Assembly: GCA_016178135.1 (NCBI GenBank)
Contig: JACOTW010000003.1
Location: forward strand, 472-64,471
Length of the DNA stretch: 64,000 bases
Source: Candidatus Saccharimonadota bacterium
Lineage (GTDB): Bacteria > Patescibacteriota > Saccharimonadia > Saccharimonadales > JACOTW01
Reading direction: 5' to 3'
Made by a program: the position numbers and the translations under genes. Below are positions 13,852 through 61,479 of the stretch, piece by piece. Each line of letters starts with the position of its first letter. Position 1 is the stretch's first letter. Below the pieces are notes generated by a model that was not told the origin of the DNA, did not search any database, and worked only from the letters and a program-made list of their open reading frames with translations.

Positions 13852-13858
13852 TTTTGTT

Positions 13859-19263: not shown

Positions 19264-19298
19264 TGATTTTGTAGGGCTTGGATGAACGGCTAGACATA

Positions 19299-21895: not shown

Positions 21896-21898
21896 TGC

Positions 21899-22894: not shown

Positions 22895-24346
22895 ATGGAT
22901 TTTATTCGTGTAAGTCCGGTAAACTATCAATACATGAAAGTTACGATCGTTACATGCTACAAAGATCCTGATTATGTACGGGCTCGTACTTTGCGTGCGG
23001 GCTTGGCTGCCAATGCGGGAGTTGAGATGACTATCGTAAAAAACAAACATAAAAATATCTTGCGCTATCCAGAGACTATTATCCGACTAGTCATTGACCG
23101 CATTAACAATAGACCAGATGCTTATATCTTGACGTTTCGCGGTTACGAAATATTGCCTTTTTTACAGCTAATCGCTTGGTCAAAACCAATTATATTTGAT
23201 GAATTTATCAATCCGTTGGAATGGTTGGCGGAGCCACGGCACGAAAAATGGGTAGGGCTGATTCCTAAAAAGGCCCTGAAGAAGTTTTACGTCGCTTTGC
23301 TTGGGCGTTGTCGTTTTATCCTGGCTGATACTCAAGCGCACGCCGATTACAGCGTCAAATTAAGCGGTCAGCAAACAAATGTACTGGACTCACCCAAAAC
23401 CCCTCGTTCCCAGGGCGAATCAGCTCGAGCGAAAACAGTTTTATCTGAAGGAGAGGTAGCCTTAGCTACATCGAGAGAAGAAAAACCGTTTGTAGCCGAT
23501 AGAATTCGATCTGGGGATGAGGGAGTTTTCGACAGGTCCAGTAAATACTGGGCAATACCTGTCGGTACTGACGAGACGGTTTTTGATTATAAACTGGACT
23601 TACGCAAAATCGCCCGTTCCCAGGGCAAATCAGTTCGAGTTGGAAGTGGTTTTACCGAAGGAGAGGTAGCCATATCTACATTGAAAGAAGGCAGACCACT
23701 ACCAGCCGAGATTAGTTGGTCTGGGGATGGGGGAGTTTTGCGTAAGTCCAGTAAAGTTCGGGTTTTAGAAAAATACTTCCAAGTATTTTATTACGGCAAC
23801 ATGTTACCCCTTCATGGACTGGAATATGTTTTGGAAGCGGCTGTTTTATTGAAAAATAATCAAAACATAAAGTTTTTGATCGTTGGGGGCAACAGTAGAA
23901 CAGTTAAAATGATAAAAAACGCGCAACAACAAGGAGCAAAAATTAAGTATCAGAACTGGATTCCATTTGAAGAATTACCAAAAGTTATTGCCACTTCTAG
24001 TTTATGTTTAGGCGGGCCATTTGGTAAAACAAATCAAGCACAAAAAGTAATTACAGGTAAAACTTACCAGTTTTTAGCCAGCGGTGCGGCTACGTTGATT
24101 GGCAATACAGAAGCCAGTGCTTTGTTTATTGATAAGAAAAATAGCTTAGTTGTGCCGCTAGCCGATCCGCTAGCTCTAGCTACGACCATTGATTGGGCTT
24201 ATCAGCACCGGCAACAACTTCCGGCAATTGGTCAAGCCGGCAACAGGCTTTATCAGGAAAACTTTTCGGTGCGTATTATTACTGGCGAATTGTCAGCTAT
24301 TTTGACCAAACTTGCTTCTGGCATGAGTAATAATCGCCATCACTAA
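22895..24346 (+). CDS. GT-B glycosyltransferase (GT4-like) whose inter-domain region carries two in-frame MITE insertions
   Basis: C-terminal GT1/GT4-type domain (…FLASGAATLIGNTEAS…VPLADP…); ORF stays open across 23383-23752. Confidence 0.55.
   Translation: MDFIRVSPVNYQYMKVTIVTCYKDPDYVRARTLRAGLAANAGVEMTIVKNKHKNILRYPETIIRLVIDRINNRPDAYILTFRGYEILPFLQLIAWSKPIIFDEFINPLEWLAEPRHEKWVGLIPKKALKKFYVALLGRCRFILADTQAHADYSVKLSGQQTNVLDSPKTPRSQGESARAKTVLSEGEVALATSREEKPFVADRIRSGDEGVFDRSSKYWAIPVGTDETVFDYKLDLRKIARSQGKSVRVGSGFTEGEVAISTLKEGRPLPAEISWSGDGGVLRKSSKVRVLEKYFQVFYYGNMLPLHGLEYVLEAAVLLKNNQNIKFLIVGGNSRTVKMIKNAQQQGAKIKYQNWIPFEELPKVIATSSLCLGGPFGKTNQAQKVITGKTYQFLASGAATLIGNTEASALFIDKKNSLVVPLADPLALATTIDWAYQHRQQLPAIGQAGNRLYQENFSVRIITGELSAILTKLASGMSNNRHH
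23383..23542. repeat. MITE-like repeat (orientation A) inserted in-frame in the glycosyltransferase ORF
   Basis: actggactcacccaaaacccctcgttcccagggcgaatcagctcgagcgaaaacagtttt...gtagccttagctac...ctggggatgagggagttttcgacaggtccagt. Confidence 0.9.
23593..23752. repeat. MITE-like repeat (orientation A), second tandem in-frame copy in the same ORF
   Basis: actggacttacgcaaaatcgcccgttcccagggcaaatcagttcgag...gtagccatatctac...ctggggatgggggagttttgcgtaagtccagt. Confidence 0.9.
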
Positions 24347-25486
24347 CAGTAGTCCTAGTAATATTAAGTAGATTCCGCGGTCGAGTATATTGGCGGCGAC
24401 TATGGTGTCGCTGTTGATGTGGTGCGAGCGTTGCGAGAAAAATAAAAATGATTCGCGAAACCCTAGAGCTCCTGGGGTTAACGAAACGAACAAAGCAAAG
24501 TTAGCAGCTCCTGTATATGTCAAAACTTGGGAAAAAGAAACCGACACATTAGTAGCACGAATCTCAAAAAAATAGATAGTTGCCACAAGACTTATTTGTA
24601 ATAGTGTGAAAAGTGCTAATTTACTTGCCAGAATACCTTTTTTAGAAATTGTCATTGTTTTACTCGACCCACCCAAAACCTCCCCACCCCCAGATGGAAT
24701 TCTGTCGGTTGCGAACAGTTTTTCTTCTCTAGATGTAGCTAAGGCTACCTCTCTTTCAGACAAAACAGTTTTCGCTCGAACTGATTCACTCTGGGAATGG
24801 ACGATTTTGTGTGAGTCGAGGTTGTTTTTCTTAAAATAAAACAAAACTCCAAAGATGCCTGCCCCAAATATTAACAAAAATAGTACACTGTGCCATGAAG
24901 ATTGACTACCAAAAAATAGAAATGAGGCACTAATAAAGGCAAAAAAAGCGTAATAAAGTAAAGTTGCTCCAGAGTAGGCTTTTAGACTAACGCCATGTTG
25001 TTTTTTTAAATAAACCGCCCGAAACCCGGGCCCGCTCTGTAGTGGTCCAAAAAAATTGACTATCGATGAGTAAATAGTCAGCAACGAGTTTTCTTTTAGA
25101 GACAACTTAACTCCACAAAGCCTAAGAATCGTATCGTAGACAAGAATTAGCGATGCAATTGTTAATACATACAAACCGAGTATTAATATCAGGGTACCTA
25201 CGTTTATTTGTCGTAATTGATCAATAACGCCTGAATGAGTTTTGAGATAGTAAAAAAAAGTTCCCAAAGTTAGAGCTAGGACACTAATACCAAGAAAACG
25301 TTTTAACCATCCTATACTCGACTTACTCAAAATCCCTCCATCCCCAGATCGAGTTCTATCGGCTGCAAACAGTTTTTTCTTTCTAGATGTACCTTCAGGT
25401 ACCTCCCCTTCAGATGAGACAGTTTTCGCTCGAGCTAATTCACTCTGGGAACGGACGATTTTGCGTAAGTTGAGTATAACCACCAA
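24293..25486 (-). CDS. Polytopic membrane protein (lysyl-PG-synthase-TM/flippase-like, UPF0104-type) with two in-frame MITE insertions; start uncertain
   Basis: Multiple TM helices, ...SLTPGALGFRE... motif; ORF continuous through repeats 24662-24820 and 25316-25475. Confidence 0.4.
   Translation of the reverse strand: MVVILNLRKIVRSQSELARAKTVSSEGEVPEGTSRKKKLFAADRTRSGDGGILSKSSIGWLKRFLGISVLALTLGTFFYYLKTHSGVIDQLRQINVGTLILILGLYVLTIASLILVYDTILRLCGVKLSLKENSLLTIYSSIVNFFGPLQSGPGFRAVYLKKQHGVSLKAYSGATLLYYAFFAFISASFLFFGSQSSWHSVLFLLIFGAGIFGVLFYFKKNNLDSHKIVHSQSESVRAKTVLSEREVALATSREEKLFATDRIPSGGGEVLGGSSKTMTISKKGILASKLALFTLLQISLVATIYFFEIRATNVSVSFSQVLTYTGAANFALFVSLTPGALGFRESFLFFSQRSHHINSDTIVAANILDRGIYLILLGLLLVMAIITHARSKFGQNS
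24662..24820. repeat. MITE-like repeat (orientation B) in-frame inside membrane-protein ORF
   Basis: actcgacccacccaaaacctccccacccccagatggaattctgtcggttgcgaacag...gatgtagctaaggctacctc...ctgggaatggacgattttgtgtgagtcgag. Confidence 0.85.
25316..25475. repeat. MITE-like repeat (orientation B) at the 5' end of the 24293-25486 ORF
   Basis: actcgacttactcaaaatccctccatccccagatcgagttctatcggctgcaaacag...gatgtaccttcaggtacctc...ctgggaacggacgattttgcgtaagttgagt. Confidence 0.9.
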
Positions 25487-25537: not shown

Positions 25538-27367
25538 ATGATGTTGAAGCAGCAGGAGAAAAAACGTGAAATTATTGATGTTGTCGCACGACTGTTGAGC
25601 TCGCGAAAATTTTTCTATATAACGATTGTTTTTTTTGTTTTTCAGGCAGCCTGGATAGCTTTGTCCGGACTTTATCCTATGGCTTTTGATGAGAATACTC
25701 ATCTTGGAATTATCAGGATATATGCTAATCATCTTTCACCTTTTTGGTCGAGACAGCCGGAAGGTACTGTTGTGTTAGGGGCTATTACTCGCGATCCCTC
25801 GTATTTTTACCATTACATTATGAGTTTTCCGTATAGGCTGATTGATGATGTTTTTCGCACGGAAATGTCCCAAGTGTTGGTACTTAGATTTATTAGTATA
25901 GTCTTTTTTGTTTGTGGCCTATTGCTTTATCGTCGGGTTCTCAAATACAGCAAAGCATCAGATCTAACTGTCAATGTCGTAATGGCGCTTTTGGTATTAA
26001 CGCCGGTTGTGCCATTTTTGGCTGCTCAAATCAATTACGACAATTTGATATTTGCACTTTGCGGACTGATTATCTTGCTAACATTGCAAATATCGGAAAG
26101 ACTTAACTGGACTTACGCGAAATCGCTCGTTCCTGGGGATAATCAGCTCGAGCGAGAACAGTCTCATCTGAAAGAGAAGCGCGTAAAGGTGCATCGAAAG
26201 AGAGAAAACTGTTTGCAGCCGAGGTTAGTCGGTCTGGGGATGAGGGAGCTTGCGACAGATCCAGTTGAACAGGGTCAAATTGACGCCAAACGAATCCTAT
26301 TGGTAATTATAGTTGGCTTGTTTGCCAGTATTGTGAAATATGCGTTTTTGCCAATTTTTATTGCAGTTTTAGTATGGTTAAGTTTTGATTTGAAGAAATA
26401 TGGTGGTGGTGCGATATTTAGACTGTTTGTGAATTCTTTTCGGAAGATTGTATGGCCAGTCAAAACCATACTTGTCATATTATTGATTATTGGAGCCGGA
26501 TTATTTACGGAACGCTACGGCATAAATACGCTACGCTACCATACGCCCACACCGGAATGCGACCAAGTTCTAAGTATTGAACAGTGCTTAGAATACGGAC
26601 CGTGGAGACGAAATTATCTCACCCATCAAGACAAAATCAACGGAAAACTTACTGTCAATAATGCTAGTGACCCTATTTCTTATACACTCAAAACATGGGC
26701 TGAAACAATGGTTTATAAATTGTTTTTTGTGAGTAATGGGCCGGCGAGTCAGTTTTGGATTGGTAATCCACTACCTGTACCGCTTGCTTTAGCCACGGGG
26801 TTTGGGATTGTTGGGGTTCTCTTGGCTTTGTGCTGGCAGAGAGAGTTACGCAAAAAATATAAACTGGGTCTTTTTGGTTTATTGACGGGTGTTTATGTAA
26901 TGGTTTTATGGGGTCAGAATTACATGGATTTTTTGCATATTGGTTATCCGTTTGCTATACAAGGACGATATTTGCTACCTATTTTGCCATTCGTATATCT
27001 TATATTAGTTCTAGCTATGAAGGCTCAACGACACACGAGTTTCGCACTTAGCCATTGCCCCAGATCACACCTGAACGGCTACAAACTTCCATCCCTCACT
27101 CAGCATAACTACAGTTATGCCTCCCTCGGATTAAAAGTTTTCGCTTGTTCAGTTGCAACCTGGCATCAACGGCTAAGTGCGAAACTCGTGCGACAGCTAA
27201 AAATAGGATTGGCGGTTACGATTTTGTTTATTTTGTTTATTCAGGGCGGTGGTCTGGTAACTTATATTGTTCGGAGTGACCAAACATGGTATTGGCCCAA
27301 TCAAACGATCGTGAATATCAATGATACCGCCCGCAAAATTCTTAAAACGTTTATTATTGGTTCTTGA
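25538..27367 (+). CDS. Large polytopic membrane protein, possible GT-C-fold glycosyltransferase (Pmt/ArnT-like); carries in-frame repeat insertions
   Basis: >12 predicted TM helices; first-loop AFDENTH (DE-type motif); adjacency to GT2 Ppm-like gene. Confidence 0.35.
   Translation: MMLKQQEKKREIIDVVARLLSSRKFFYITIVFFVFQAAWIALSGLYPMAFDENTHLGIIRIYANHLSPFWSRQPEGTVVLGAITRDPSYFYHYIMSFPYRLIDDVFRTEMSQVLVLRFISIVFFVCGLLLYRRVLKYSKASDLTVNVVMALLVLTPVVPFLAAQINYDNLIFALCGLIILLTLQISERLNWTYAKSLVPGDNQLEREQSHLKEKRVKVHRKRENCLQPRLVGLGMRELATDPVEQGQIDAKRILLVIIVGLFASIVKYAFLPIFIAVLVWLSFDLKKYGGGAIFRLFVNSFRKIVWPVKTILVILLIIGAGLFTERYGINTLRYHTPTPECDQVLSIEQCLEYGPWRRNYLTHQDKINGKLTVNNASDPISYTLKTWAETMVYKLFFVSNGPASQFWIGNPLPVPLALATGFGIVGVLLALCWQRELRKKYKLGLFGLLTGVYVMVLWGQNYMDFLHIGYPFAIQGRYLLPILPFVYLILVLAMKAQRHTSFALSHCPRSHLNGYKLPSLTQHNYSYASLGLKVFACSVATWHQRLSAKLVRQLKIGLAVTILFILFIQGGGLVTYIVRSDQTWYWPNQTIVNINDTARKILKTFIIGS
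26105..26265. repeat. MITE-like repeat (orientation A, diverged) in-frame inside membrane-protein ORF (read in a third frame)
   Basis: actggacttacgcgaaatcgctcgttcctggggataatcagctcgagcgagaacagtctc...ggtctggggatgagggagcttgcgacagatccagt. Confidence 0.85.
27034..27190. repeat. Variant palindromic element with 24-bp perfect terminal IR (cacgagtttcgcacttagccattg / caatggctaagtgcgaaactcgtg) and MITE-like core; in-frame in the same ORF
   Basis: IR read directly; core ggctacaaac...aaaagttttcgct resembles MITE interior; the right arm recurs inside the mosaic copy at 45301-45452. Confidence 0.7.
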
Positions 27368-28298
27368 GGTATGATCGTTTGGCGAGTTCCAATTGGTCTT
27401 CGGCAAGAATTCGGTTGGTTCTGGTGAGATCTGCCAAGACTCCTAGTACAAATGCCAAAAAAGCCCCAATCAATAATATGGCACCAAGAACTAATGATTG
27501 CAGATGGCTACCTGGTCGACTATCAATCATAAACCATACGTAACGAATGAATGGAATAAGTCCCAGGGCTAACAGTGTGCCACCTAGACTAAGGAACACT
27601 GCATACGGCCTATACATTGTGTAGGCTCGAATGATTGCCATCGCGGACTGAAAGACGTGCTCCCGCGTAGACTTAAACAGACGTGATTCGCGAGTTTTCG
27701 GATTGGTCGTAATAGGTATGGAGGTGATTGCCAGCTGTTTATTGCCGGCTTGAATTATGGTCTCCATGCAGTAGCTGAATCTTGTTATGGTGTTGAGTTT
27801 TATAATTGCTTCGCGTGAATATGCTCTAAAGCCGCTGGCAGCATCGGGTATGTCAGTTCCGGCAGCAATGTTGACGATTCGACTCCCCAGTTTTTGTAAG
27901 ATTTTTTTAAAAGGCGAAAAATGTGCAATGCGATCTGTTTGGCGATTTGCTACGACGATATCTGCTCGTCCTTCGATAATTGGTTGTATAAGGTTTCCGA
28001 TTTCGCCACTTGGGTATTGGTTGTCCCCATCGGTGTTAACCACGATATCTGCGCCCATTTCCAAGGCTTTTAGAACGCCATCGTGAAATGATTGTCCAAG
28101 TCCCATATTGCGCGTGTGCCGTACAAAGTGGTTGATGCCTAGTTGCCGAGCAACCTTGATGGTGTCATCAGTTGAGCCGTCATCAATAATCAATATTTCA
28201 ATTGTATCAATTCCTGCGATTTTTTTAGGTATGTCGTGCAGAACAAGCGACAGTGTTTTTGCCTCATTAAGACAGGGAATTTGAATAACTAATTTCAT
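27354..28298 (-). CDS. GT2 glycosyltransferase, polyprenol-phosphate mannose/glucose synthase-like (DPM1/Ppm1-type) with C-terminal TM helices
   Basis: IPCLNEAKTL...IIDDGSTDDT...VNTDGDNQYP motifs (DxD, GT-A fold). Confidence 0.75.
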   Translation of the reverse strand: MKLVIQIPCLNEAKTLSLVLHDIPKKIAGIDTIEILIIDDGSTDDTIKVARQLGINHFVRHTRNMGLGQSFHDGVLKALEMGADIVVNTDGDNQYPSGEIGNLIQPIIEGRADIVVANRQTDRIAHFSPFKKILQKLGSRIVNIAAGTDIPDAASGFRAYSREAIIKLNTITRFSYCMETIIQAGNKQLAITSIPITTNPKTRESRLFKSTREHVFQSAMAIIRAYTMYRPYAVFLSLGGTLLALGLIPFIRYVWFMIDSRPGSHLQSLVLGAILLIGAFLAFVLGVLADLTRTNRILAEDQLELAKRSYLKNQ

Positions 28299-28336
28299 TT
28301 ATAACTTTCTTTGGAGTGATGTACTCGATCTGGTTT

Positions 28337-28410
28337 GGCTTCGGGACTAGGATTCGAACCTAGATTGCTGGGACCAGAACCCAGTGTCCTACCGTTAGAC
28401 GATCCCGAAT
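28337..28410 (-). tRNA. tRNA-Gln (anticodon CUG), CCA encoded
   Basis: Reverse complement folds as cloverleaf: acceptor ttcggga/tcccgaa, D gtct/ggac, anticodon stem ctggg/cccag with loop ttCTGgt, T-arm ctagg-ttcgaat-cctag, discriminator G, CCA. Confidence 0.85.
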
Positions 28411-28413
28411 GAT

Positions 28414-28624
28414 TCATTCGACCTAAAAACTCCTCCATACCTAGACCGAATCCCATCGGTTATACCGGACTGACGAAAAACTCCCCCATCCCCAGACCAA
28501 CTAATCTCGGCTGATAGCGGTCTGTCTTCTCTCGATGTAGCTAAGGCTACCTCTCCTTCAGTCAAACCACTCCCAACTCGAGCTGATTTGCCCTGGGAAC
28601 GGGCGATTTTGCGACAGGTCCAGT
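28414..28624. repeat. Partial MITE fragment (28414-28469) followed by full MITE-like copy (orientation B, 28470-28624)
   Basis: …aaaaactcccccatccccagaccaactaatctcggctgatagcggtctg…gatgtagctaaggctacctc…cctgggaacgggcgattttgcgacaggtccagt. Confidence 0.9.
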
Positions 28625-28686
28625 ATAAACAATTTATCTTACATGGAAACTATTATTCCCCATTGTCGAAGATTTTAACAGATTAG

Positions 28687-29865
28687 CTAAAACAAGTCTA
28701 AGCCGTTTATTTCTGGGGGTAAAAAACCTTCGGGGTGTTTGAAGCCGGCTTTCCATTTAGTACCTTTGCCATAGCCCAGATCTTTCATGAGTTGGGTAGG
28801 TGCGTTGCGGAGATGAATTGGTACAGGAAGGTTGGGGTAATTTTTGGCGGTCTCTATGGCTTTATACATGGCGTTAGCTACGGCTCGTGACTTTTCACAT
28901 TTAGCAAGTACGGTAGCGCAGTGAAACAGATTGAATTGACATTCCGGCAAGCCAGTGCGTTCGACTGCCAAAAAAGTTGAAACAGCCAGATTCAAGGCTG
29001 CCGGTGCGGCAATACCGATGTCTTCGCTGGCGAAAATTACCATGCGTCTAGCGATAAATTTTGGATCTTCACCAGCTTGTATCATTCGTGCCATGTAGTA
29101 AAGGGCGGCATTAGGGTCATTGCCACGCAATGATTTTATAAAGGCACTGATTATGTTGTAGTGATTTTCTCCTTGCTTGTCATAGTCTGGAGCGCGCTTC
29201 TGAGCGGCCATAACTACTACTTCTGGTGTAATTGTGCCGTTGGTTAAACTTAATGCTAGCTCCAGATTGCCTAGGGCAATGCGGGCATCGCCACCCGATA
29301 GCTCGGCTATTAGATCAATACTGCGAATGGGTAAGCGTTTGGCAGTGATTTTTTCTGTCTTGGTGGCTTGTTTGATGATTTTAATAATTTCGGTTTTATC
29401 CAGAGGGTTTAATACTAGTACGCGCGAGCGACTAAGTAATGGTGCGATAACCTCGAAGCTGGGATTTTCAGTTGTTGCACCGATTAGTATTATGGTACCA
29501 GTTTCTACATGGGGTAAAAAGGCATCTTGTTGGGTTTTGTTGAAGCGATGAATCTCATCTACGAATAAAATAGTGCGTATACCCAGCCGCTGATTTTGTT
29601 GAGCACGATCAATAACCTTTGTTATGTCAGCTTTGCCGGAGGTTACGGCACTAAGTTCGGTGAATTCGACATCCAGCTCATTGGCCAGTATGCGAGCCAG
29701 GGTGGTTTTGCCAGAGCCAGGCGGTCCCCAGAGAATCAGGCTTGCGGGCTTATTTTTGGTAATAATTTCATGAACTATAGCCCCAGGAGCCAATAAGTGC
29801 TCCTGGCCGACCATCTGCTTTAATTTATCCGGCCGCATTCGTTCGGCCAACGGTCTTCTGTCCAC
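28687..29865 (-). CDS. rarA: Replication-associated recombination protein A (AAA+ ATPase RarA/MgsA)
   Basis: Walker A GPPGSGKTT, Walker B ILFVDEIHRFNK, sensor/arginine-finger region, C-terminal MgsA helical domain. Confidence 0.9.
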   Translation of the reverse strand: MDRRPLAERMRPDKLKQMVGQEHLLAPGAIVHEIITKNKPASLILWGPPGSGKTTLARILANELDVEFTELSAVTSGKADITKVIDRAQQNQRLGIRTILFVDEIHRFNKTQQDAFLPHVETGTIILIGATTENPSFEVIAPLLSRSRVLVLNPLDKTEIIKIIKQATKTEKITAKRLPIRSIDLIAELSGGDARIALGNLELALSLTNGTITPEVVVMAAQKRAPDYDKQGENHYNIISAFIKSLRGNDPNAALYYMARMIQAGEDPKFIARRMVIFASEDIGIAAPAALNLAVSTFLAVERTGLPECQFNLFHCATVLAKCEKSRAVANAMYKAIETAKNYPNLPVPIHLRNAPTQLMKDLGYGKGTKWKAGFKHPEGFLPPEINGLDLF

Positions 29866-29908
29866 CCTAACAGTATACCGGTTTTACTTAATACAACTAA
29901 AGTCCTGT

Positions 29909-30121
29909 CTACTCACCACCTTTTTGGACATAACCCTTCACAAACTCTTCAGCATTTTCTTCTAGTACTTCATCAATCTCATCCAGTAAACCGTCAAGTT
30001 CTTCTTTAATACCGGCACCCTTTGTGGCTGTTTCACCAACGCTATGCACTTGGTCTTCATTGGTTTCCTCTTCTCTACGGCGCTCTGGTGTTGGTACTCG
30101 TTTTTGTATACGTTCTGCCAT
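29909..30121 (-). CDS. pup: Prokaryotic ubiquitin-like protein Pup homolog (70 aa) ending in GGE
   Basis: C-terminal LLDEIDEVLEENAEEFVKGYVQKGGE aligns almost residue-for-residue with mycobacterial Pup (LLDEIDDVLEENAEDFVRAYVQKGGQ); strong RBS GGGAGG. Confidence 0.8.
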   Translation of the reverse strand: MAERIQKRVPTPERRREEETNEDQVHSVGETATKGAGIKEELDGLLDEIDEVLEENAEEFVKGYVQKGGE

Positions 30122-30248
30122 AGTTTGAGCCTCCCTTATGTTTATGAATCCAAAACCAGTATAACACCAGTTTCACACTTTTTCATTTGCCCGCGATTGG
30201 CAACGCGCATGTATAATACATAATATATATAAAAAAAAGGGGGGACAT

Positions 30249-30881
30249 GTGGCTGACCTAAAAGTAACCAAAACAGGAGTTAATTCAAAAATGATACAAA
30301 TTGGTAGCAAGAAATTGATGCTGGCATCACTAGTATTAATCTTGACTATAGCGATTGGTGGTGGTGCCTACTGGTGGCGTGATAAACAGGCCAAAGACGA
30401 TCGAGCTAAAAATGATAATGAAATTGTACAATTGCGACAAAAAGTGGCCAACCTAGAAAAACAACTAATTGATTCTAAGGCTAAATTGGCTACGGAGAAG
30501 CCAGTCGTTACAAATACAGCCCTTAATCAGGCCATGATAGACAATGTCAAAGCCGTTTTTGCTACCGGTAACACGCAGCCACTGGAGGGTTACATGACCG
30601 CCAAAGTAACGGTTATTATTGCTGCTTCAGAGGGTTTGGGTGAGCGTACTGCAGCGCAAGCGACCGCCGACATCACGTCCTATGTAGGTGGTGCCACTGA
30701 TGCTTGGAATTTTTCATTGCCGACAGCTACTATTAACGCCTACAAGAGTGGTGATTACGGCCAGTATTTTCCAGATGGTGCGTTGGTAGGTAAGTCAAAC
30801 AACATGGTTATTTCGTTTACGTTTAACGATGTGGGTAAAATTAGTACGGTTTTTATGACTAATAGTGCGCAACTTCTTTAA
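30249..30881 (+). CDS. Hypothetical membrane-anchored protein (single N-terminal TM, coiled-coil, extracytoplasmic domain); likelier start ATG 30291
   Basis: Hydrophobic LMLASLVLILTIAIGGGAYWW segment; RBS caggag before 30291. Confidence 0.4.
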   Translation: MADLKVTKTGVNSKMIQIGSKKLMLASLVLILTIAIGGGAYWWRDKQAKDDRAKNDNEIVQLRQKVANLEKQLIDSKAKLATEKPVVTNTALNQAMIDNVKAVFATGNTQPLEGYMTAKVTVIIAASEGLGERTAAQATADITSYVGGATDAWNFSLPTATINAYKSGDYGQYFPDGALVGKSNNMVISFTFNDVGKISTVFMTNSAQLL

Positions 30882-31259
30882 ATGATAAATATTGATGACC
30901 GGCAGTTTGAAGAATTCATAAATCAGGCAATGGACGAGTTGCCACGACAGTATATAGAGAAGCTGGACAATGTTGCTATTATTTATGAAGATGAGCCCAC
31001 TACTGAACAGCGACAGAAATTGCGTTTACGTTGTGATCAGGATTTATACGGCTTGTATGAAGGTATCCCCCTGACCAGACGTGGCGTTGGCTATAATCTG
31101 GTACTGCCAGATAAGATCACAATCTTCAAAAAAGCCATCTTGATGAGTGCCCATGACTTGCATCAGGTCAAAGCCCAAGTTAAACATACGTTGTGGCATG
31201 AAATCGCCCATTATTATGGTCTGGATCATGCTAGAATTCATTATTTGGAGCAAAAGTGA
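30882..31259 (+). CDS. Small HExxH zinc-metalloprotease-like protein (minimal MMP-like/COG3824-type)
   Basis: HEIAHYYGLDH motif near C-terminus. Confidence 0.45.
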   Translation: MINIDDRQFEEFINQAMDELPRQYIEKLDNVAIIYEDEPTTEQRQKLRLRCDQDLYGLYEGIPLTRRGVGYNLVLPDKITIFKKAILMSAHDLHQVKAQVKHTLWHEIAHYYGLDHARIHYLEQK

Positions 31260-31345
31260 TGGAGCAAAAGTGACACAAATCCTTAATTTGCTCATATAGC
31301 CATTCATCATGGAAACTTTTGTACTTTATAATAATTAGCGAGTAA

Positions 31346-31457
31346 ACTGGATTTGTCGCAAAATCGCTTGTTCCCAGAGCGAAAGTTCTATTTTATCTGA
31401 AGGTACATCGACCTGTTTGTCAGTTTGGGGATGATGGAATTTTGCGACAGGTCCAGT
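31346..31457. repeat. Shortened (~112 bp) MITE derivative (orientation A)
   Basis: actggatttgtcgcaaaatcgcttgttcccagagcgaaagttc...gtttggggatgatggaattttgcgacaggtccagt. Confidence 0.8.
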
Positions 31458-32251
31458 ACAATGTTCACAGTAATAGAAAGGCCTTCAAATTGGCAGATTA
31501 CAGACATGTTATTTTCTTTTCACTAGTTGGCGGAGTTTTTTCGTTAATCGGTGGAATTATATTATTGAGCAAAGAAAAATACGCCCAAGCATTAGCAAAA
31601 TACGCTACGCCGTTTGCGGCGGGGGCGTTATTGGCAGCTGTATTTTTGGATCTTATCAAAGAAGGTTTACAGGAATCCAATGCCAATACGGTGCTGACTT
31701 CGGCGTTGATTGGAATAGTAGTATTCTTTTTTGCGGAGCGGTTTTTGCATTGGTTTCACCACCATCATCAGCACGATGGCGCACCCGATGCCAGCGTTTC
31801 TTTGATAATTATTGGCGATACACTTCATAATGCGCTAGATGGGATAGCTATCGCGGCGGCATTTTTGGTCAGTATCCCAACTGGAATTGTTACGACATTT
31901 GCGGTGGCGGCCCATGAAATACCGCAGGAAATTGGTGATTTTGGCTTGTTATTACACAAGGGGCTGTCCCGAAAACGAGTGCTACTTGTCAATGTCTTGA
32001 GTGCCTTAGCAACTACCATGGCTGCCGTGCTGACGTTTTGGCTGGGCAGTGCTGACAGATTGCCGATAGGTGTTCTATTGGGACTGAGCGCCGGTCTATT
32101 GCTATACATTGCCATGAGCGATATTATCCCTGAAATCCATGAGCGATCAGACAACCAAAGACTGTTCGAGTGGCAACCGATTTTGCTCATGATTGGGGCA
32201 CTGGTTGTGGCCGTTTGCATCAATTTGGCACAACGATTTATTTCTGGATAG
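31442..32251 (+). CDS. ZIP-family divalent metal transporter (ZupT-like); start uncertain (possible TTG at 31442 or 31484)
   Basis: His-rich loop HHHHQHDG, HNALDG and HEIPQEIGDF ZIP signature helices. Confidence 0.75.
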   Translation: MRQVQYNVHSNRKAFKLADYRHVIFFSLVGGVFSLIGGIILLSKEKYAQALAKYATPFAAGALLAAVFLDLIKEGLQESNANTVLTSALIGIVVFFFAERFLHWFHHHHQHDGAPDASVSLIIIGDTLHNALDGIAIAAAFLVSIPTGIVTTFAVAAHEIPQEIGDFGLLLHKGLSRKRVLLVNVLSALATTMAAVLTFWLGSADRLPIGVLLGLSAGLLLYIAMSDIIPEIHERSDNQRLFEWQPILLMIGALVVAVCINLAQRFISG

Positions 32252-32266
32252 AGTACAATATTGTAG

Positions 32267-33343
32267 ATGATTGTAGTGGTTATTATTTTGGGGGTTTTGA
32301 ATGTGGGGTTATTGCTGTTTTTGATTGCTAAAAAGTCAAATGCTTCTGAAAGTGGTTCGGCGCAAATGCTCAAGGCTGATCTGACAGAGCTCAATAAAGG
32401 AGTTTTGGAATTAAAGGATTCTCTGAACGATAAAATTAGCGACAAGTTGGATAAAAGCCAAAAGCACATTAGTGATAGTATCCAGCGCCAGTTCGAACAA
32501 TCGGCCAAAATTATCACCGATATATCCGGTCGTTTGACTAAACTGGACGAGACAAACAAGCGGGTTGTAGATGTGGCGGATGAGCTAAAGAGCCTCCAAA
32601 ATGTGCTTCAAAATCCCAAACAGCGAGGAGTTTTGGGGGAGTTTTATCTAAAGCAAATACTCGAAAATATGTTACCGCCGGGGACTTTCGAATTGCAATA
32701 TCGCTTGGCGGAAGGGCTGGTGGTGGATGCCGTGATCAAGCTAGATGATAAGTTTTTGCCGATAGACAGCAAGTTTTCATTGGAAAATTACAACCGTTTA
32801 GTAGAAGCTAAGCCCGCCGAGCGTCCAGCGCTGGAAAAATTATTCAAAGAAGATCTCAAAAAACGTATTGATGAAACCGCCAAATATATTTTGCCCAAAA
32901 AAGGCACGCTGGAACAGGCGTTGATGTTTATCCCTAGCGAGGCAATTTATTATGATTTGTTGGCCAATAAGGTTGGAGTAGGTGGCGTGAACGGCCGGGA
33001 TTTGATGCATTATGCCGCCGTAGACAAGCGCGTAACGGTGGTTGGCCCGAGTACGTTATCCGCCATGTTGCAGATTGTTTCCCAGGGATTAAATAGTCTG
33101 GAAATTCAAAAAGACACCGAGCTCATCCGCAATAACGTCGAGCAATTGGGCAAACACCTTAAAAATGTCGACGGCTATTTTATCAGACTAGGCAATTCAC
33201 TCGGCGCGACTGTCGGGCATTTCAATAGCGCCCATAAAGAACTAGGCAAAGTCGATAAAGACGTGATAAAGATCAGTGGTGGCACAACACAAGTCGAACC
33301 CATTTTACTTGACCGACCAACTGTCGGGGAGGACATAGACTGA
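32267..33343 (+). CDS. rmuC: DNA recombination protein RmuC
   Basis: N-terminal TM + coiled-coil, RmuC core (…QRGVLGEFYLKQILENMLPPGTFELQY…). Confidence 0.8.
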   Translation: MIVVVIILGVLNVGLLLFLIAKKSNASESGSAQMLKADLTELNKGVLELKDSLNDKISDKLDKSQKHISDSIQRQFEQSAKIITDISGRLTKLDETNKRVVDVADELKSLQNVLQNPKQRGVLGEFYLKQILENMLPPGTFELQYRLAEGLVVDAVIKLDDKFLPIDSKFSLENYNRLVEAKPAERPALEKLFKEDLKKRIDETAKYILPKKGTLEQALMFIPSEAIYYDLLANKVGVGGVNGRDLMHYAAVDKRVTVVGPSTLSAMLQIVSQGLNSLEIQKDTELIRNNVEQLGKHLKNVDGYFIRLGNSLGATVGHFNSAHKELGKVDKDVIKISGGTTQVEPILLDRPTVGEDID

Positions 33344-33933
33344 TGAAAAACTGGACTATTGAAAAAGCATATCCGTACGTATTGCTCGTCACTGGGTTTT
33401 TGGGGCTAGTTGCTTCATTCATCCTGACCTATGACAAAATCATGATCCTGAAAGACCCTAATTTCATCCCTGACTGCAATATTAATCCAATTTTCAGCTG
33501 TGGTTCGGTCATGAGCAAGCCACAAGCTGAAGTATTCGGCATGCCCAACACGCTATTTGGGATAATCGCATTTAGCGTAATTGTAACCATAGCGGTCGCA
33601 ATGTTGTTCGGCGCAAAGTTTAAGCCGCTATTTTGGAAACTGCTTTTCGCTGGAACTTTGGCGGGGCTTGCTGGCGTTATCTATCTATTTTTCCAGGGGA
33701 TATACCGTATAAATGCCATTTGTCCTTATTGCGCTATGACCTGGGTCGTGGTCGTGGCGTTAGTCGTTTATACGTTTGTCTGGAATATAAAGCAAAAATA
33801 CATGACAGTGCCAAAAACTTTTGAGCAGTCGGCCAAGTTTGTTGTCCAAAACCACATCGGTGTCCTTGTGGTTATATATCTAATAATTCTTGGTTTAGTA
33901 TTGCAGCATTTTTGGTGGTATTTTGGTAGCTAG
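33343..33933 (+). CDS. Vitamin K epoxide reductase (VKOR) family membrane protein
   Basis: Loop cysteine pair CNINPIFSC and active-site CPYC in TM helix; ~5 TM helices. Confidence 0.7.
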   Translation: MKNWTIEKAYPYVLLVTGFLGLVASFILTYDKIMILKDPNFIPDCNINPIFSCGSVMSKPQAEVFGMPNTLFGIIAFSVIVTIAVAMLFGAKFKPLFWKLLFAGTLAGLAGVIYLFFQGIYRINAICPYCAMTWVVVVALVVYTFVWNIKQKYMTVPKTFEQSAKFVVQNHIGVLVVIYLIILGLVLQHFWWYFGS

Positions 33934-36376: not shown

Positions 36377-36398
36377 TTCGTACCAATCATCTGTACTC

Positions 36399-36433
36399 TG
36401 TTATCAATGCAAAAGTGCGAAAGTCCTATATAA
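36399..36433 (+). promoter_or_regulatory. Recurring CTGTTATCaATGcAAAAGTGCGAAAGTCCTATATAAT promoter-like box upstream of pheS (very short leader)
   Basis: Same box as 45548-45583 over ~35 nt; TATAAT ends 11 nt before pheS ATG. Confidence 0.5.
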
Positions 36434-36443
36434 TACATACCAA

Positions 36444-45452: not shown

Positions 45453-45547
45453 AAATACAAAAACACAACATGTAGCGTATTGCATAAGTATCAAAACGCT
45501 ATACAATAAGTCTTGCAAGCTTTTTTATAGGGCTTACGCATTACCCT

Positions 45548-45583
45548 GTTATCTATGTAAAAGTGCGAAAGTTCTATATAAAA
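45548..45583 (+). promoter_or_regulatory. Recurring CTGTTATCtATGtAAAAGTGCGAAAGTTCTATATAAA promoter-like box upstream of glutaredoxin-like gene
   Basis: Near-identical to 36399-36433 box. Confidence 0.5.
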
Positions 45584-45627
45584 AATTAACAAACAACGTA
45601 AAAGTATCAAAAGAAAGGGTAAATATC

Positions 45628-57956: not shown

Positions 57957-59921
57957 ATGAGTCGATTTAGTCTTGAGTCAGATTATCAGCCTACCGGTGA
58001 TCAACCGGTAGCTATTGCTAAATTGACAAAAAATCTTGAGAAAGACGTTAAAGAGCAGGTTTTGTTAGGGGTTACGGGTTCGGGGAAAACATTTTCTATG
58101 GCCAATGTGATTCAGAACGTACAAAAACCAACACTTGTACTTAGTCATAATAAAACCTTAGCAGCGCAGTTGTATGGTGAATTTAAACGTTTCTTTCCAA
58201 ACAATGCGGTGCATTATTTTGTGAGCTATTTTGACTACTATCAGCCTGAAGCCTACATTGCCCGCTCTGATACTTTCATAGAAAAGGATTCTCAAATTAA
58301 CGAAGAAATAGATCGCTTACGGCACGCGGCAACCGATGCCCTATTAAGCCGAAAGGATGTAATAATTGTTGCTAGTGTGAGCTGTATTTATGGTATTGGC
58401 TCGGTTGAGGATTATGATAATCTTGCGGTTAATTTGAAACGAGGAGAGAGGCGCATTCGAGATAAGCTTCTTAGGCAACTTACAGACATACAGTATCGAC
58501 GCAACGATGTAGATTTTCATCGAGGCGTGTTTAGGGTACGAGGAGATGTAGTTGATGTTTTTCCGGCAGGCGAGGAAGTGGCGTATAGAATTGAATTCTT
58601 TGGTGAAGAAATTGATAAAATTACCAAAATCGATCCACTAACCGGTGAAATTATAGCCAACATTGACACGTTCAAAATATTTCCAAGTTCGCACTACGTT
58701 ACACCCCAAGAAAAATTAAAAATGGCTTTAGGTAAAATTGAACGCGAGCTTGACGAAAGGTTAAATTTGTTTAAGCAGACCGGTAAGTTGCTTGAAGCTC
58801 AACGGCTGGAACAACGTACTCGTTTTGACTTGGAAATGATGGAAGAAACTGGTTTTGTGAAAGGAATTGAAAATTATAGTCGCTATCTGACAAATCGTGA
58901 GCCTGGCGAGCAACCAGCCACTTTGTTGGACTATTTTCCGGATGATTTCTTGATGTTTGTTGACGAATCACACATGACCATTCCACAGATTCGTGGAATG
59001 TACAACGGCGATCGGGCACGCAAGGAAGTGTTAGTGGAGCATGGTTTTCGCCTCCCCAGCGCGCTGGATAATCGCCCGTTAACATTTACAGAATTCGAAA
59101 AGCACATAAATCAAGTCGTGTATGTGAGCGCAACGCCCGCACAGTATGAAATATCCCGTAGTCCAGAACCAGTTCAGCAGGTTATTAGACCGACTTGGTT
59201 GGTCGATCCGAAGATTGAAGTCCGGGCAATTGATGGGCAAATTGATGATTTAATTGGTGAAATTAGGGCAACGGTCGCCAAGCATCAACGTGTTTTGGTT
59301 ACGACTCTGACCAAAAGAATGTCCGAGGACTTGACCGAATATCTCAAGGAATTAAACATCAAAGTTACTTATTTGCACAGTGATGTGGATACGCTGGACC
59401 GGACTGACATTTTGCGTGATTTACGATTGGGGGTCTATGACGTGGTGGTTGGTATCAATTTGTTACGCGAAGGTTTGGACTTGCCAGAAGTTAGCTTGGT
59501 GGCGATTTTGGATGCTGACAAAGAAGGCTTTTTGCGAAGCGAGCAGGCACTTATACAAACAGTAGGCAGGGCGGCTAGACATCTTGATGGCAGAGTAATT
59601 ATGTACGCCGACCATATAACTGGCAGTATGCAGCGGACCCTGGATGAGACAGATCGTCGTCGTGCAATACAGCTTGCCTACAATAAGACTCACAATATTA
59701 CACCCACTGGCATATCTAAAACTGTAGAAAAAGGTATGCGACCAGATCTGCCAGAAGAAGCCAAAACAGCAAAACTTAACCTCAATAAAATTCCAAAAGA
59801 CGAGTACAAACATTTGATCAAAGACCTAACCGCCCAAATGGAACTGGCCTCCGCCAACCTAGAATTCGAAAAAGCCGCCGAACTCCGCGACATCATTGAG
59901 GATATCAAAAACAAATCTTAA
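57957..59921 (+). CDS. uvrB: Excinuclease ABC subunit B
   Basis: Walker [10 protein letters not shown], helicase motifs, beta-hairpin region, C-terminal UvrC-interaction coiled coil (…[12 protein letters not shown]…). Confidence 0.95.
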
Positions 59922-60058
59922 AACCGTGGATTTTCTAATGCCAGATTCACTCTTACGATATCAATGCCCGAATGTACTTAGTTAGACCTTGATGATTGTA
60001 ACCCAACAGGTTTTTCTGGACGACGTCTATATTGGACGTACCGTAAAAAGAAGGTATA

Positions 60059-60205
60059 GTCCCCGCAAAACAAATTCGTGGGTTTTTGAAGCAATGATCT
60101 TTGAGCCAAAAACTGACTTTTCCCAGAGAGACATATCCTTAGATACGTTGAACGAGGAAAGGCGGTTTTGGGCCAAAGAGGGTGATTCGAAAAGTGCGGT
60201 TTTTC
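60059..60205 (+). repeat. Second copy of repeat family 2 (see 15305-15453), forming the 5' region/N-terminal leader of hicB
   Basis: ~97% identity by eye to 15305-15453. Confidence 0.85.
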
Positions 60206-60408
60206 AGGAAGAAATCGCAGGAGGATTTTCGGTATGGGTGCCTGATTTGCCTGGTTGTGCATCTCAAGGCGAAACTTTAGAAGAAGCACTCAAAAATATT
60301 AAGGAAGCCATAGAGCTTTACCTGGAAGATAGCCCAGCCACCGAAGACGCGACCGACTATAACTATAGACGTCAGTTCGTGGTGCCCGTCAGACTAGCAC
60401 ATGCCTAA
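60094..60408 (+). CDS. hicB: HicB-family antitoxin (type II TA); start uncertain, ATG 60094 lies within repeat family 2
   Basis: …GGFSVWVPDLPGCASQGETLEEALKNIKEAIELYLED… HicB/UPF0150 core. Confidence 0.7.
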   Translation: MIFEPKTDFSQRDISLDTLNEERRFWAKEGDSKSAVFQEEIAGGFSVWVPDLPGCASQGETLEEALKNIKEAIELYLEDSPATEDATDYNYRRQFVVPVRLAHA

Positions 60409-60625
60409 ACTACCTCAAGTATCCGCAGCCGACTTAACGCATGCGTTTCGTAAGATGGGTTTTGTGAAAATCGGACAAAAAGGTAGCCACATTAAAATGC
60501 GTGACACACATGGACGAACAGCGATTATCCCCAACCATAAGAGTATTAAGCCCGGTACACTGAAGAAGGGTATATTAAACCCACTTGGCATTACTGTAGA
60601 GGAACTTATAAAACATTTAAAGTAA
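60401..60625 (+). CDS. hicA: HicA-family mRNA interferase toxin
   Basis: …LTHAFRKMGFVKIGQKGSHIKMRDTHGRTAIIPNHKSIKPGTLKKGILNPLGITVEELIKHLK matches HicA (YcfA-like dsRBD fold); overlaps hicB by 8 nt. Confidence 0.8.
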   Translation: MPKLPQVSAADLTHAFRKMGFVKIGQKGSHIKMRDTHGRTAIIPNHKSIKPGTLKKGILNPLGITVEELIKHLK

Positions 60626-60815
60626 TACCGTGGTGTAATCCTATTCGCAACCTATAGCAATCCCAAAACAAAACACACATTTTGAGACGTGCCTTGACGG
60701 CCCAAAATTGTCATTCCTCATTCACAGTATCTACCGATATGCTTTGTCGCAAAACAGTCATTTTTAGTCTACCTAGGGCTCATCTAAATTTCGTCATTTC
60801 GTTATGGGATGGCTA

Positions 60816-60882
60816 TAACCGCCCAAATGGAACTAGCCTCCGCCAACCTAGAATTCGAAAAAGCCGCCGAACTCCGCGACAT
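60816..60882 (+). repeat. 67-bp direct repeat duplicating the uvrB 3' end (59827-59893; 1 mismatch), bounding the hicBA cassette; continues as a diverged alternative UvrB C-terminus (…RDIVTDIKSKL*)
   Basis: taaccgcccaaatggaact(g/a)gcctccgccaacctagaattcgaaaaagccgccgaactccgcgacat present at both positions. Confidence 0.85.
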
Positions 60883-60942
60883 TGTGACAGACATAAAATC
60901 CAAACTCTAAAAGGTATCTTGGTAGACACTTATTATATAGGC

Positions 60943-61102
60943 TGGACCTGTCGCAAAACTCCTCCATCCCCAGATCGAATTATATCGGCTGCAAACAGTT
61001 TTTCTTCTCTCAATGTAGCTACGGCTACCTCTCCGCCAGATAAAACTGTTTTCGCTCGAGATAATTCACTCTGGGAACGGACGATTTTGCGACAGGTCCA
61101 GT
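60943..61102. repeat. MITE-like palindromic repeat (orientation B)
   Basis: ctggacctgtcgcaaaactcctccatccccagatcgaattatatcggctgcaaacag…caatgtagctacggctacctc…ctgggaacggacgattttgcgacaggtccagt. Confidence 0.9.
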
Positions 61103-61185
61103 AGACATATCAGATCGAATTATATATCGGGTATACTTACGGAATTTCGGAAGTCCTGTACAGCTCTGTTATACTAGGAGAACGT

Positions 61186-61479
61186 ATGGCGAAATTGTCT
61201 AAAGATGATGTATTAAAATTGGCTCGATTGGCTCGCTTGCAGTTAAGTGATGGCGAGGTTGATCAGTTTAGACAAGAAATTGAGGCGATATTAGGCTATG
61301 TTGAACAGCTTGGGGAGGTAGATTTGACTGACTTTGAGCCGACCAATCAAGTAACGGGGCTGACAAATGTTATGAGACCGGATGTAATTAAAAACTATGG
61401 GGTGACTCCCAGAGAGTTGCTGAAGAATGCTCCAGCTACTCAGGAGGGTCATATCAAAGTCAGAAGGATGCTGACTTGA
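61186..61479 (+). CDS. gatC: Asp-tRNA(Asn)/Glu-tRNA(Gln) amidotransferase subunit C
   Basis: LSKDDVLKLARLARLQLSDGEVDQF…LGYVEQL GatC pattern; ATGA overlap with gatA. Confidence 0.85.
   Translation: MAKLSKDDVLKLARLARLQLSDGEVDQFRQEIEAILGYVEQLGEVDLTDFEPTNQVTGLTNVMRPDVIKNYGVTPRELLKNAPATQEGHIKVRRMLT

Follow-up and report, generated by a model that had tools for sequence, protein, structure and literature searches.

The DNA analyzed here (hereafter the window) is a 64-kb stretch from the genome of a Candidatus Saccharibacteria (TM7) organism, and the feature under study is a small insert at the 3′ end of its uvrB gene. The gene is intact, its product containing the domains UvrB_inter, UvrB, Helicase_C and, at residues 620-652, UVR. 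Its last part is present a second time downstream, and between the two copies lie a repeat that resembles a miniature inverted-repeat transposable element (MITE) and a small toxin-antitoxin (TA) module, hicB-hicA (hicBA). Beyond the distal copy the order is a second kind of MITE-like repeat, gatC and gatA. The features are listed in Table 1.

Table 1. Features of the uvrB-gatC region (window positions; nt, nucleotides; aa, amino acids; ORF, open reading frame; TIR, terminal inverted repeat)
Feature	Position	Strand	Basis
uvrB, intact, 654 aa	57957..59921	+	NCBIfam PRK05298/uvrb equivalogs, 1060/1033 bits, full length
Proximal repeat copy: core 59827-59893, tail 59894-59923 (IIEDIKNKS*, stop 59919-59921)	59827..59923	+	Self-comparison
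Left non-coding spacer, 131 nt, unique	59924..60054		Matches sister-strain contig L002 only
Family-2 MITE-like element, 140 nt, right end truncated by 119-bp deletion	60055..60194	+	99% identical to 15303-15442
hicB antitoxin, 104-aa fusion: 34 residues of family-2 ORF + HicB from residue 12	60094..60408	+	Pfam HicB_lk_antitox
hicA toxin, 74 aa, GSH motif, 8-nt overlap with hicB	60401..60625	+	Pfam HicA_toxin
Right non-coding spacer, 190 nt	60626..60815		60699-60765 is a degenerate inverted partial family-2 copy
Distal repeat copy, the displaced uvrB end: core 60816-60882, tail 60883-60912 (IVTDIKSKL*)	60816..60912	+	Self-comparison
Family-1 MITE-like repeat, 160 nt, perfect 17-nt TIRs (CTGGACCTGTCGCAAAA), between distal copy and gatC	60942..61101		Inverted-repeat and repeat-family analysis
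gatC, conserved downstream neighbor, far side of insertion spot	61186..61479	+	Pfam GatC, 3.3e-21

The duplicated uvrB end

The two copies form a direct repeat of 97 nt (86% identical) that corresponds to the final 95 nt of uvrB plus two further bases. Its first 67 nt, the core, are identical at 66 positions, the sole mismatch (59846 G, 60835 A) being a synonymous change in a Leu codon; when the uvrB end was compared by BLAST with its own downstream DNA, this 67-mer was recovered with E = 6e-31. Thirteen of the 14 mismatches in the repeat fall within its last 30 nt, the tail (hypergeometric P = 2.9e-7), which in the proximal copy encodes the final 9 residues of UvrB. Homology between the copies stops at the stop codon (+2 nt) in both, and the left edge of the distal copy at 60816 is abrupt, with no clear microhomology at 60815/60816. 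A 33-aa ORF (60809-60910) holds the distal copy including the whole UVR motif; no Shine-Dalgarno sequence is visible in front of it.

The initial annotation of this DNA had reported the duplication of the core with one mismatch, the continuation of the distal copy into a diverged UvrB C-terminus (RDIVTDIKSKL*) and the enclosure of the family-2 repeat, hicB and hicA between the repeats. All three observations stand, both tails translating as described and the enclosed features being recognized by Pfam domains and by the 99% identity to 15303-15442; the homology in fact extends to 97 nt.

Two tails and one homogenized core

The tails differ at 13 of 30 nt, with the stop codon remaining in place. 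Their conserved positions (D, I, D, I, K, K and the stop) are all kept, three of them through synonymous changes, and 10 of the 13 differences fall within four codons that vary naturally among UvrB proteins. Natural UvrB ends one residue away from each tail were found, namely P0225 (...DIIEDIKKKS) for the proximal and P0148 and P0230 (...DIITDIKSKL) for the distal one. As the tails differ in the manner of functional UvrB alleles, one of the two gene ends is most simply explained as foreign: both tails appear to have evolved as ends of working uvrB genes in different lineages, foreign DNA having supplied one of them. This coding pattern, together with the retained stop, upholds the earlier claim that the incoming DNA brought a replacement gene end.

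It also bears on a local origin, in which the host's own uvrB end was tandemly duplicated when hicBA inserted and the distal tail then decayed neutrally. Such an origin could draw on a group of related species in which the copies of a uvrB end, located around a diversity-generating retroelement (DGR) described below, look as though they had been almost identical when the insertion took place. Here, however, the differences are concentrated in the tail and follow a coding pattern, and the distal tail lies one residue from natural UvrB tails, as a decaying pseudogene would not. Local duplication and decay is therefore very improbable.

Synonymous differences affect 1 of 22 core codons, as opposed to 3 of 7 conserved tail codons. 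Between species, synonymous codon identity at the uvrB end is 0.40-0.48, so that the core differs once where about half of the synonymous positions would be expected to differ, which argues that it was homogenized by recombination or gene conversion. The pattern implies that uniformity was reached either through recombination at the insertion or through later gene conversion, with the uniform tract apparently stopping where homology collapses. Choosing the native tail by its similarity to relatives gave no decision, both tails being equally distant. Nucleotide-level constraint on the uvrB end, as from a bacterial attachment site (attB) or an embedded promoter, was likewise rejected: the above values, obtained for the last 30 codons in 81 relatives, are not higher than those of the rest of the gene.

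Comparison with relatives

The uvrB locus was read in 80 further Saccharibacteria species, each represented by a single genome (UvrB 67-85% identical), out of at least 597 Saccharibacterial uvrB loci in GTDB. gatC follows uvrB in 67 of the 80, with spacers ranging from 26 bp to 5.4 kb and measuring 26-113 bp in 15 species; in the window, the spacer without insert and MITE comes to ~115 nt. In none of the 80 relatives does hicBA lie between uvrB and gatC. Because of this absence, the synteny and the short spacers in the 15 species, the insert is to be regarded as a derived state, and uvrB would ancestrally have had gatC within ~100 bp. The comparison thus agrees with the initial annotation that an insertion took place at the uvrB 3′ end, and speaks against the ancestral duplication that it had named as a contrary possibility, as the duplicated arrangement is absent from the other species.

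The occupied spacers of the relatives contain unrelated genes, e.g. those for alpha/beta hydrolases, a DEAD-box helicase and membrane proteins, and cargo directly behind uvrB is common in the phylum; this diversity indicates that the spot has been variable over long timescales. Inspection by eye, with no domain search run on these ORFs, revealed no integrase-like sequence among them. In one syntenic Saccharibacterium (JGI Ga0395691_000037; L098 5757-6225), a related hicBA module (HicA 79% identical) is located between a SLOG gene and uvrB; the gaps on its two sides, 36 nt and 42 nt, are too small to accommodate a duplication of at least 30 nt, and the search for one was negative.

Reality and apparent fixation of the arrangement

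The arrangement is real and not an assembly artefact. It is present in the window's own 114.9-kb NCBI contig, which carries proteins MBI1856950 to MBI1856952, and in the 654-kb contig JBFOMR010000010.1 of GCA_040960765.1, to which the window is 99.5% identical; a third assembly is indicated by the cluster table. Independent short-read contigs are also available from Logan: those of runs SRR25508618 (contig in 3 samples), SRR12113416 and SRR25508619 have the same upstream genes and all end at 59876. Both cores share every 31-mer from 59847 on, and 59876 is the final base of the last unique 31-mer, where a graph with k = 31 must branch; the contig ends thus indicate that both copies, with the same mismatch, are present in the samples. 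Both strain haplotypes are represented among the Logan contigs, which come from at least five runs. The artefact considered in the initial annotation, in which the second copy would not exist, has nothing in its favor beyond the general risk of metagenome-assembled genomes. With two long NCBI contigs spanning the locus and contigs from at least five runs ending at the predicted base, its probability is negligible.

The insert looks fixed in every sampled population. No empty-site allele was found, the 90% cluster of UvrB having a single member, and no excision products were seen among the contigs and proteins searched; Logan contigs with gatC start inside the family-1 MITE and are hence uninformative on an empty site. 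For the UvrB C-terminus with the alternative tail, the best match among 5.8 billion proteins was 86% identical.

Contents of the insert

HicB and HicA are the only proteins of the insert with a family match. HicA is assigned to PF07927 (2.7e-13, 50 bits against a cutoff of 27) and HicB to PF15919 (1.7e-11, 44.7 bits against a cutoff of 27); the short HicB has no Pfam match to a DNA-binding domain. The 214 HicA homologues found are all of ~74 aa, the nearest being 75-85% identical; homologues at that level are common in Patescibacteria, where DNA similarity (~77%) ends at the coding region and the contexts differ. HicA would act as an mRNA-cleaving toxin and HicB as its neutralizer, and the locus presumably behaves at present as an ordinary chromosomal HicAB addiction or defense module and not as a moving element.

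Only ~320 nt of the insert are neither MITE nor TA DNA. No significant remnant of a second uvrB or of gatC was found in its spacers, and Rfam recognized no RNA family within the insert or close to it, its sole match in the window being a tRNA-Gln. A promoter scan marked a promoter-like site at 60033-60060, the -35 half of which lies inside the left spacer.

The family-2 element is classed as MITE-like by its size, TIRs and copies: a complete copy of 166 nt with ~26-nt TIRs is found at L001 9537-9702 (L001 being the sister-strain contig), and the copies at 15303-15442 and L001 19094-19237 are 97-100% identical. It holds the ATG (60094) of the fused hicB ORF. Elsewhere in the window, a family-2 element gives the start codon and the first ~33 codons to an unrelated 284-aa ORF (15345-16196) without a Pfam match, and these initial codons are the same as those fused to the window hicB (cf. 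L001 19094-19237). The presence of the same family-2 codons at the head of two different genes indicates that this mobile repeat donates translation starts.

The family-1 repeat (160-180 nt, palindromic, with the TIR given in Table 1) occurs in at least 13 copies in the 64 kb, in both orientations: 4475-4656, 6195-6376, 7226-7391, 12945-13110, 13844-14025, 19102-19267, 23376-23541, 23586-23751, 24650-24831, 25304-25485, 26099-26264, 28452-28633 and 60930-61111. This density is unusually high for a genome of the ~1-Mb class; the repeat has no Rfam family match, and short-read assemblies break inside it.

A strain difference at hicB

The sister strain (L001) and the 777-nt contig L002 contain 119 extra bases immediately 5′ of hicB. 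These comprise the family-2 element's right inverted repeat, a promoter-like box (AAAAGTGCACAAGTCCTATATAATA) and the native start of hicB (MKKSKMIHEYQ...). This presence/absence polymorphism (window 60196-60199 vs L001 9677-9795) separates strains that are 99.5% identical. In the window, where HicB-homologous DNA begins at ~60196, hicB has lost its own promoter box and its first 11 codons and is fused in frame to the family-2 ORF, the fusion being identical to NCBI protein MBI1856951.1 (104 aa). The 81-aa form of HicB (L001, L096) appears to be the ancestral one, since relatives such as L096 share it. Survival of the 119-bp deletion as an in-frame fusion is suggestive, and is consistent with selection to keep the antitoxin expressed. 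A 39-nt repeat beside hicB in L096 was considered and set aside as a short multi-copy motif and not a gene-end duplication.

A recurring box, AAAGTGCGAAAGTCCTATATAAT, stands 5′ of several genes (window 695-739, 10891-10935, 36394-36438 and 45542-45586; L001 9735-9760, in front of hicB in the sister strain) and looks like a lineage-specific promoter motif. Single-nucleotide polymorphisms (SNPs) between the strains are very patchy (window 27314-33550 vs L100), a 6.2-kb SNP-free block standing against a mean spacing of ~100-200 nt, which would be typical of a recombining population. An SNP-poor zone around the cassette was accordingly not accepted as evidence of a recent sweep, since the strains show SNP-free blocks of 3-6 kb at other places as well.

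Searches for a recombinase, a donor and mobile relatives

The search for recombinases combined two sources: NCBI gene calls with Pfam (22-43 kb and 50-70 kb) and, for the remaining stretches, Pfam scans of the larger ORFs. Where NCBI gene calls were lacking, ORFs from ~145 aa upward were screened. Neither the insert nor the main ORFs of the window nor the gene calls of the 6.6 kb beyond yielded an integrase, transposase or relaxase, and the earlier statement that the window contains no integrase accordingly holds for the main ORFs checked. Of the marks by which integrative elements are recognized, border direct repeats, one of them in the 3′ end of the target gene, are present; a cognate recombinase of the tyrosine or serine type, within or beside the element, was not found among the window's main ORFs and the gene calls of the 6.6 kb beyond. 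As to attachment sites, compact uvrB-gatC junctions occur in distant species, and neither a same-species empty allele nor an element-borne site (attP) was found.

The cassette, which the initial annotation had suggested looking for elsewhere, has no second copy in any collection searched. A phage or plasmid origin was rejected: among viral HicA proteins, identity does not exceed 48%, the phage and plasmid collections contain no relative of the cassette, and DNA matches in them were limited to a 78-nt HicB motif in Helicobacter phages and plasmids. The repeat core had no match in viral contigs. Among metagenome contigs, six matched a 32-mer of the core, four of these being ordinary distant uvrB genes (~71% identical overall) and two uvrC. 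The uvrC matches (L083 9688-9719; L086 699-730; UVR motif, from an unrelated high-GC organism) were rejected as an attP, being a codon-level coincidence of a kind that could mislead searches for attachment sites. No donor lineage was found that has a uvrB ending in ...GACATCATTGAGGATATCAAAAACAAATCTTAA (tail-L) followed by the left spacer AACCGTGGATTTTCTAATGCC, and a literature search for uvrB as an integration site returned nothing relevant.

These results do not establish two terms of the initial annotation. It had called the event site-specific; the main ORFs and the 6.6 kb beyond yielded no recombinase, and the DGR-clade event described next has a different block of identity. It had also called the cassette mobile; no second copy, empty allele, sign of excision or phage or plasmid relative was encountered, and the cassette appears to be fixed.

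A second insertion at a uvrB end

In another Saccharibacterial locus (L018, UvrB 80% identical), a 42-nt copy of its own uvrB end is located 2.6 kb downstream, and the DNA between the copies is a complete DGR and nothing else. Its reverse transcriptase (RVT_1, 1.2e-15) starts 5 nt past the uvrB stop; the insert further comprises a target gene with a variable repeat (VR), a template repeat (TR) and, on the opposite strand, a bAvd gene (2.6e-11). The VR/TR pair measures 117 nt and is 81% identical, the mismatches lying, by inspection, mainly at TR adenines. Reverse transcriptase homologues of 96%, 85% and 71% identity occupy the same place, between uvrB and the gatC region, in L105, L102 and L103, respectively; the second copy of the uvrB end lies immediately past bAvd in L018, L105 and L103, and in L102 hardly anything of it is left. 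By this distribution, the DGR event, which is independent of the hicBA event, is ancient and vertically inherited.

The repeat extends over 97 nt in the window and ~46 nt in the DGR clade, and the blocks of identity are located at -95..-29 and -20..-1, respectively. With different lengths and different identity blocks, the two events do not define one common att core. Two independent duplications of a uvrB end nevertheless appear to support a preference for this target. Across 1.16 Mb of Saccharibacterial loci (~800 gene ends), two-copy direct repeats over a gene 3′ end were found only at uvrB, a weak test given that the data set is centered on uvrB; gene-end duplication as a general habit of these genomes was, to the same weak degree, rejected.

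The displaced end in the DGR clade was conserved in a manner of its own. Its last 33 nt (GACCTTATTAATGACATTAAAGCnAAAATGTAA) are identical at 31 of 33 positions between L105 and L103 (L018 10538-10585; L105 4757-4803; L103 9531-9573; alignment A1, columns 54-86), whereas four-fold degenerate sites of uvrB are 0.37 identical between the same two, i.e. saturated, and the DNA past the copy cannot be aligned. Such identity in spite of saturated neutral sites argues that the displaced end is under nucleotide-level selection. It lies directly 5′ of the divergently transcribed bAvd, and a 19-aa ORF is intact in 3 of 4 lineages; the arrangement suggests that it serves as a promoter or leader of bAvd. 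Displaced gene ends may thus be co-opted, as a promoter or 5′ leader of bAvd or as a micro-ORF. In both independent events an in-frame ATG is found 2-4 codons 5′ of the displaced uvrB end (window 60809-60910; L018 10526-10585), giving ORFs of 33 aa in the window and 19 aa in L018; this may be chance.

How the insertion arose

The locus is very probably the scar of a single insertion event with a foreign replacement tail. All models require that the incoming DNA carried a uvrB end, and the structure is that expected from a single reciprocal crossover with the host gene. The explanation that we tentatively prefer is a homology-driven crossover or conversion through the UVR-motif core. Donor DNA would have come from another Saccharibacterium, in which a hicB-hicA module stood beside the 3′ end of that organism's uvrB, and one Campbell-type single crossover with the host uvrB, in the conserved coding stretch of the UVR motif, would have left the foreign tail on a working uvrB, hicBA behind it and the host's original last 95 nt displaced as a dead copy. 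The driving step would be RecA-type homologous pairing in the 67-nt core, either as the crossover itself or as a later gene conversion of the cores, and no local integrase would be needed. Later on, a family-2 MITE would have landed 5′ of hicB and a family-1 MITE before gatC; in the window strain, a 119-bp microhomology deletion would then have taken the hicB promoter and first 11 codons, fusion to the MITE-borne ORF keeping the antitoxin made.

Several observations are in line with this scheme. Homology ending at the stop codon in both copies is what would be expected of cargo lying just behind a donor uvrB, and the sharp switch in identity where homology drops is such as recombination or gene conversion gives. 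Exact 32-mers in uvrB genes that are ~71% identical indicate that there is enough match for homologous pairing between lineages. Both events brought clean cargo (hicBA or a DGR) without debris of mobile genetic elements (MGEs), and no excision signal was seen. As for the enzyme, we place homologous recombination slightly ahead of an unlinked integrase. A number of points weigh against the homology-driven scheme. An insert flanked by direct repeats of the 3′ end of a housekeeping gene is the classical signature of integration by a tyrosine recombinase, and an attP boundary would most simply account for the abrupt left edge at 60816. The donor in a single homologous crossover has to be circular or "ends-in", and no evidence of such a molecule was obtained; nor was a donor lineage found with tail-L and then the left spacer. 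The restriction of duplicated gene ends to uvrB among the ~800 surveyed fits a site preference, with the reservation that these data center on uvrB. The negative result for integrases covers the main ORFs of the window and the gene calls of the 6.6 kb beyond, with a floor of ~145 aa for ORFs outside NCBI gene calls.

Some of these points would suit an integrase-made island that has since become a remnant, a possible but rather doubtful origin. Here an integrative element, or a small non-autonomous cassette served in trans, would have brought an attP that mimicked the uvrB end; the gene for the tyrosine or serine recombinase would either never have been on the cassette or have been deleted, and the repeats around hicBA would be attL and attR. 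The anatomy (direct repeat of a gene 3′ end, replacement end, abrupt outer edge) is classic, and the same gene end was used twice independently. The literature also offers models in TA islets that remain after their carrier has eroded (PMC13617665) and in cis-mobilizable elements that occupy gene 3′ ends (fda, rpsI and rpmG; PMC7563491). Against this origin, neither the window's main ORFs nor the 6.6 kb beyond nor the called genes around the DGR-clade inserts contain a recombinase gene or pseudogene, and the insert retains no more than ~320 nt of DNA that is neither MITE nor TA. Viral, phage and plasmid collections contain no related element, no excision products were seen, and the two events share no att core. 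A core identical at 66 of 67 positions beside a tail of ~57% identity would, moreover, still require later gene conversion.

In a further mechanism, one-sided homologous recombination combined with an illegitimate join (homology-facilitated illegitimate recombination, HFIR), a linear donor, with the 3′ part of a foreign uvrB and then hicBA, would after DNA uptake have been anchored in uvrB and its far end joined at -95 of the host gene, so that the host's final 95 nt came to lie behind the cargo. This explains both the stop of homology at the stop codon and the abrupt start of the distal copy, and it accounts for clean small cargo in two events with no recombinase at all. HFIR is documented in naturally transformable bacteria, and Saccharibacteria take up DNA. 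The proximal core would in this case be donor DNA, however, which demands a donor with almost the same core but strong divergence from the very next nucleotide on; the join at 60815/60816 lacks clear microhomology, and the HFIR events we know to have been reported are deletions rather than duplications. We regard this mechanism as unlikely.

The homology-driven scheme also has a more far-reaching form, in which the duplicated uvrB end is itself the mobility device: cargo between two copies of the UVR core would loop out and re-insert, or be acquired by "ends-in" uptake, by means of host RecA only and in every Saccharibacterium that retains a 30-nt match in uvrB. Each insertion may then leave the recipient's own tail as the distal copy. 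This form is speculative, and the odds are clearly against it.

Other features of the window

The leucyl-tRNA synthetase gene (772-3708) encodes a NUDIX domain (residues 392-506, Pfam 1.8e-08) inserted just past the editing domain, and a separate NUDIX gene is found at 4736-5233. A heme-copper oxidase cluster at 17905-22792 contains COX1, COX3 and COX4 (Pfam, window), COX2 (sister-strain gene calls) and a UbiA prenyltransferase, and the sister-strain gene calls include a gene for Pup, the prokaryotic ubiquitin-like protein (L100 7643-7855, corresponding to ~29.9 kb of the window). Both the cluster and the Pup gene are noteworthy in a Saccharibacterium.

Relation to known systems and significance

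In Campbell-type insertion-duplication one region of homology suffices, a single crossover duplicating the homologous segment on either side of the insert. Unlike the present locus, the Campbell-type and HFIR events of transformable bacteria were obtained in the laboratory or selected experimentally; we know of no natural example in which such an event at the conserved 3′ end of a gene brought a foreign replacement tail. Cassettes of the staphylococcal cassette chromosome (SCC) type insert at the 3′ end of rlmH (orfX), their direct repeats include the gene end, and some lack ccr genes. SCC repeats are, unlike the uvrB repeat, short and defined integration sites served by Ccr recombinases, to which nothing equivalent is known to us in Saccharibacteria.

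The module itself resembles other HicAB type II systems in its PF07927 and PF15919 domains and in the 8-nt overlap of the genes, and sizes of 74 and 81 aa for HicA and HicB are typical of the short Patescibacterial family. It differs from other HicAB systems in that the antitoxin gene comes first, in the missing match to a DNA-binding domain and, in the window, in a HicB that is an N-terminal fusion without a promoter of its own.

Cis-mobilizable elements (CIMEs) of streptococci are found at the 3′ ends of fda, rpsI, rpmG or tRNA-Lys and have a classical size of 1.2-13 kb (PMC7563491). They share with the present locus a small insert at the 3′ end of a housekeeping gene, direct repeats, and cargo only, without integrase or transfer genes (PMC7563491). 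CIMEs are, however, decayed integrative and conjugative or integrative and mobilizable elements (ICEs or IMEs) that share att sites with a living ICE or IME and often stand in tandem (PMC7563491), whereas no parent element, cognate integrase or tandem partner is known here; repeats are thus kept without recombination or transfer genes, as in a CIME, and derivation from an identifiable ICE or IME is not seen. The uvrB repeat is also longer (67 nt identical but for one base, 97 nt homologous), and its mosaic suggests homologous recombination. In Photorhabdus, TA "islets" are single type II modules that occupy small variable sites flanked by core genes and are devoid of MGE genes; they are modeled as remaining after their carrier erodes and as spreading via homologous recombination in the flanking core genes (PMC13617665). 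The uvrB locus is alike in its lone TA module, its small variable spot and its lack of MGE genes. It is unlike in that no duplicated gene end is described in the consulted part of that report (PMC13617665), and the uvrB scar keeps its original junctions. By analogy, the locus can be regarded as a TA insertion scar of a known general kind, one that would work like CIMEs, recombinase-less SCC-like cassettes and TA islets.

Should the scar prove to be an isolated case, it would count as one more ordinary TA islet, well documented. The strain difference at hicB would add a small natural illustration of how addiction constrains evolution, since the promoter-removing deletion was encountered only together with an in-frame fusion by which translation of the antitoxin is maintained. 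The genomes of Saccharibacteria and other Patescibacteria are tiny, and we know of no described route by which they gain defense or addiction modules. Here, both junctions of one module gain are preserved at base resolution, and the older DGR gain at the same gene end provides a second example. They pose a testable question: does an unknown integrase that targets uvrB capture small cargo, or does such cargo enter, once DNA has been taken up, by homologous recombination through a conserved stretch of coding sequence? Were the duplicated end itself to prove the mobility device, a phylum in which very few mobile elements are known would possess a cassette system that targets a single gene end and works without an integrase.

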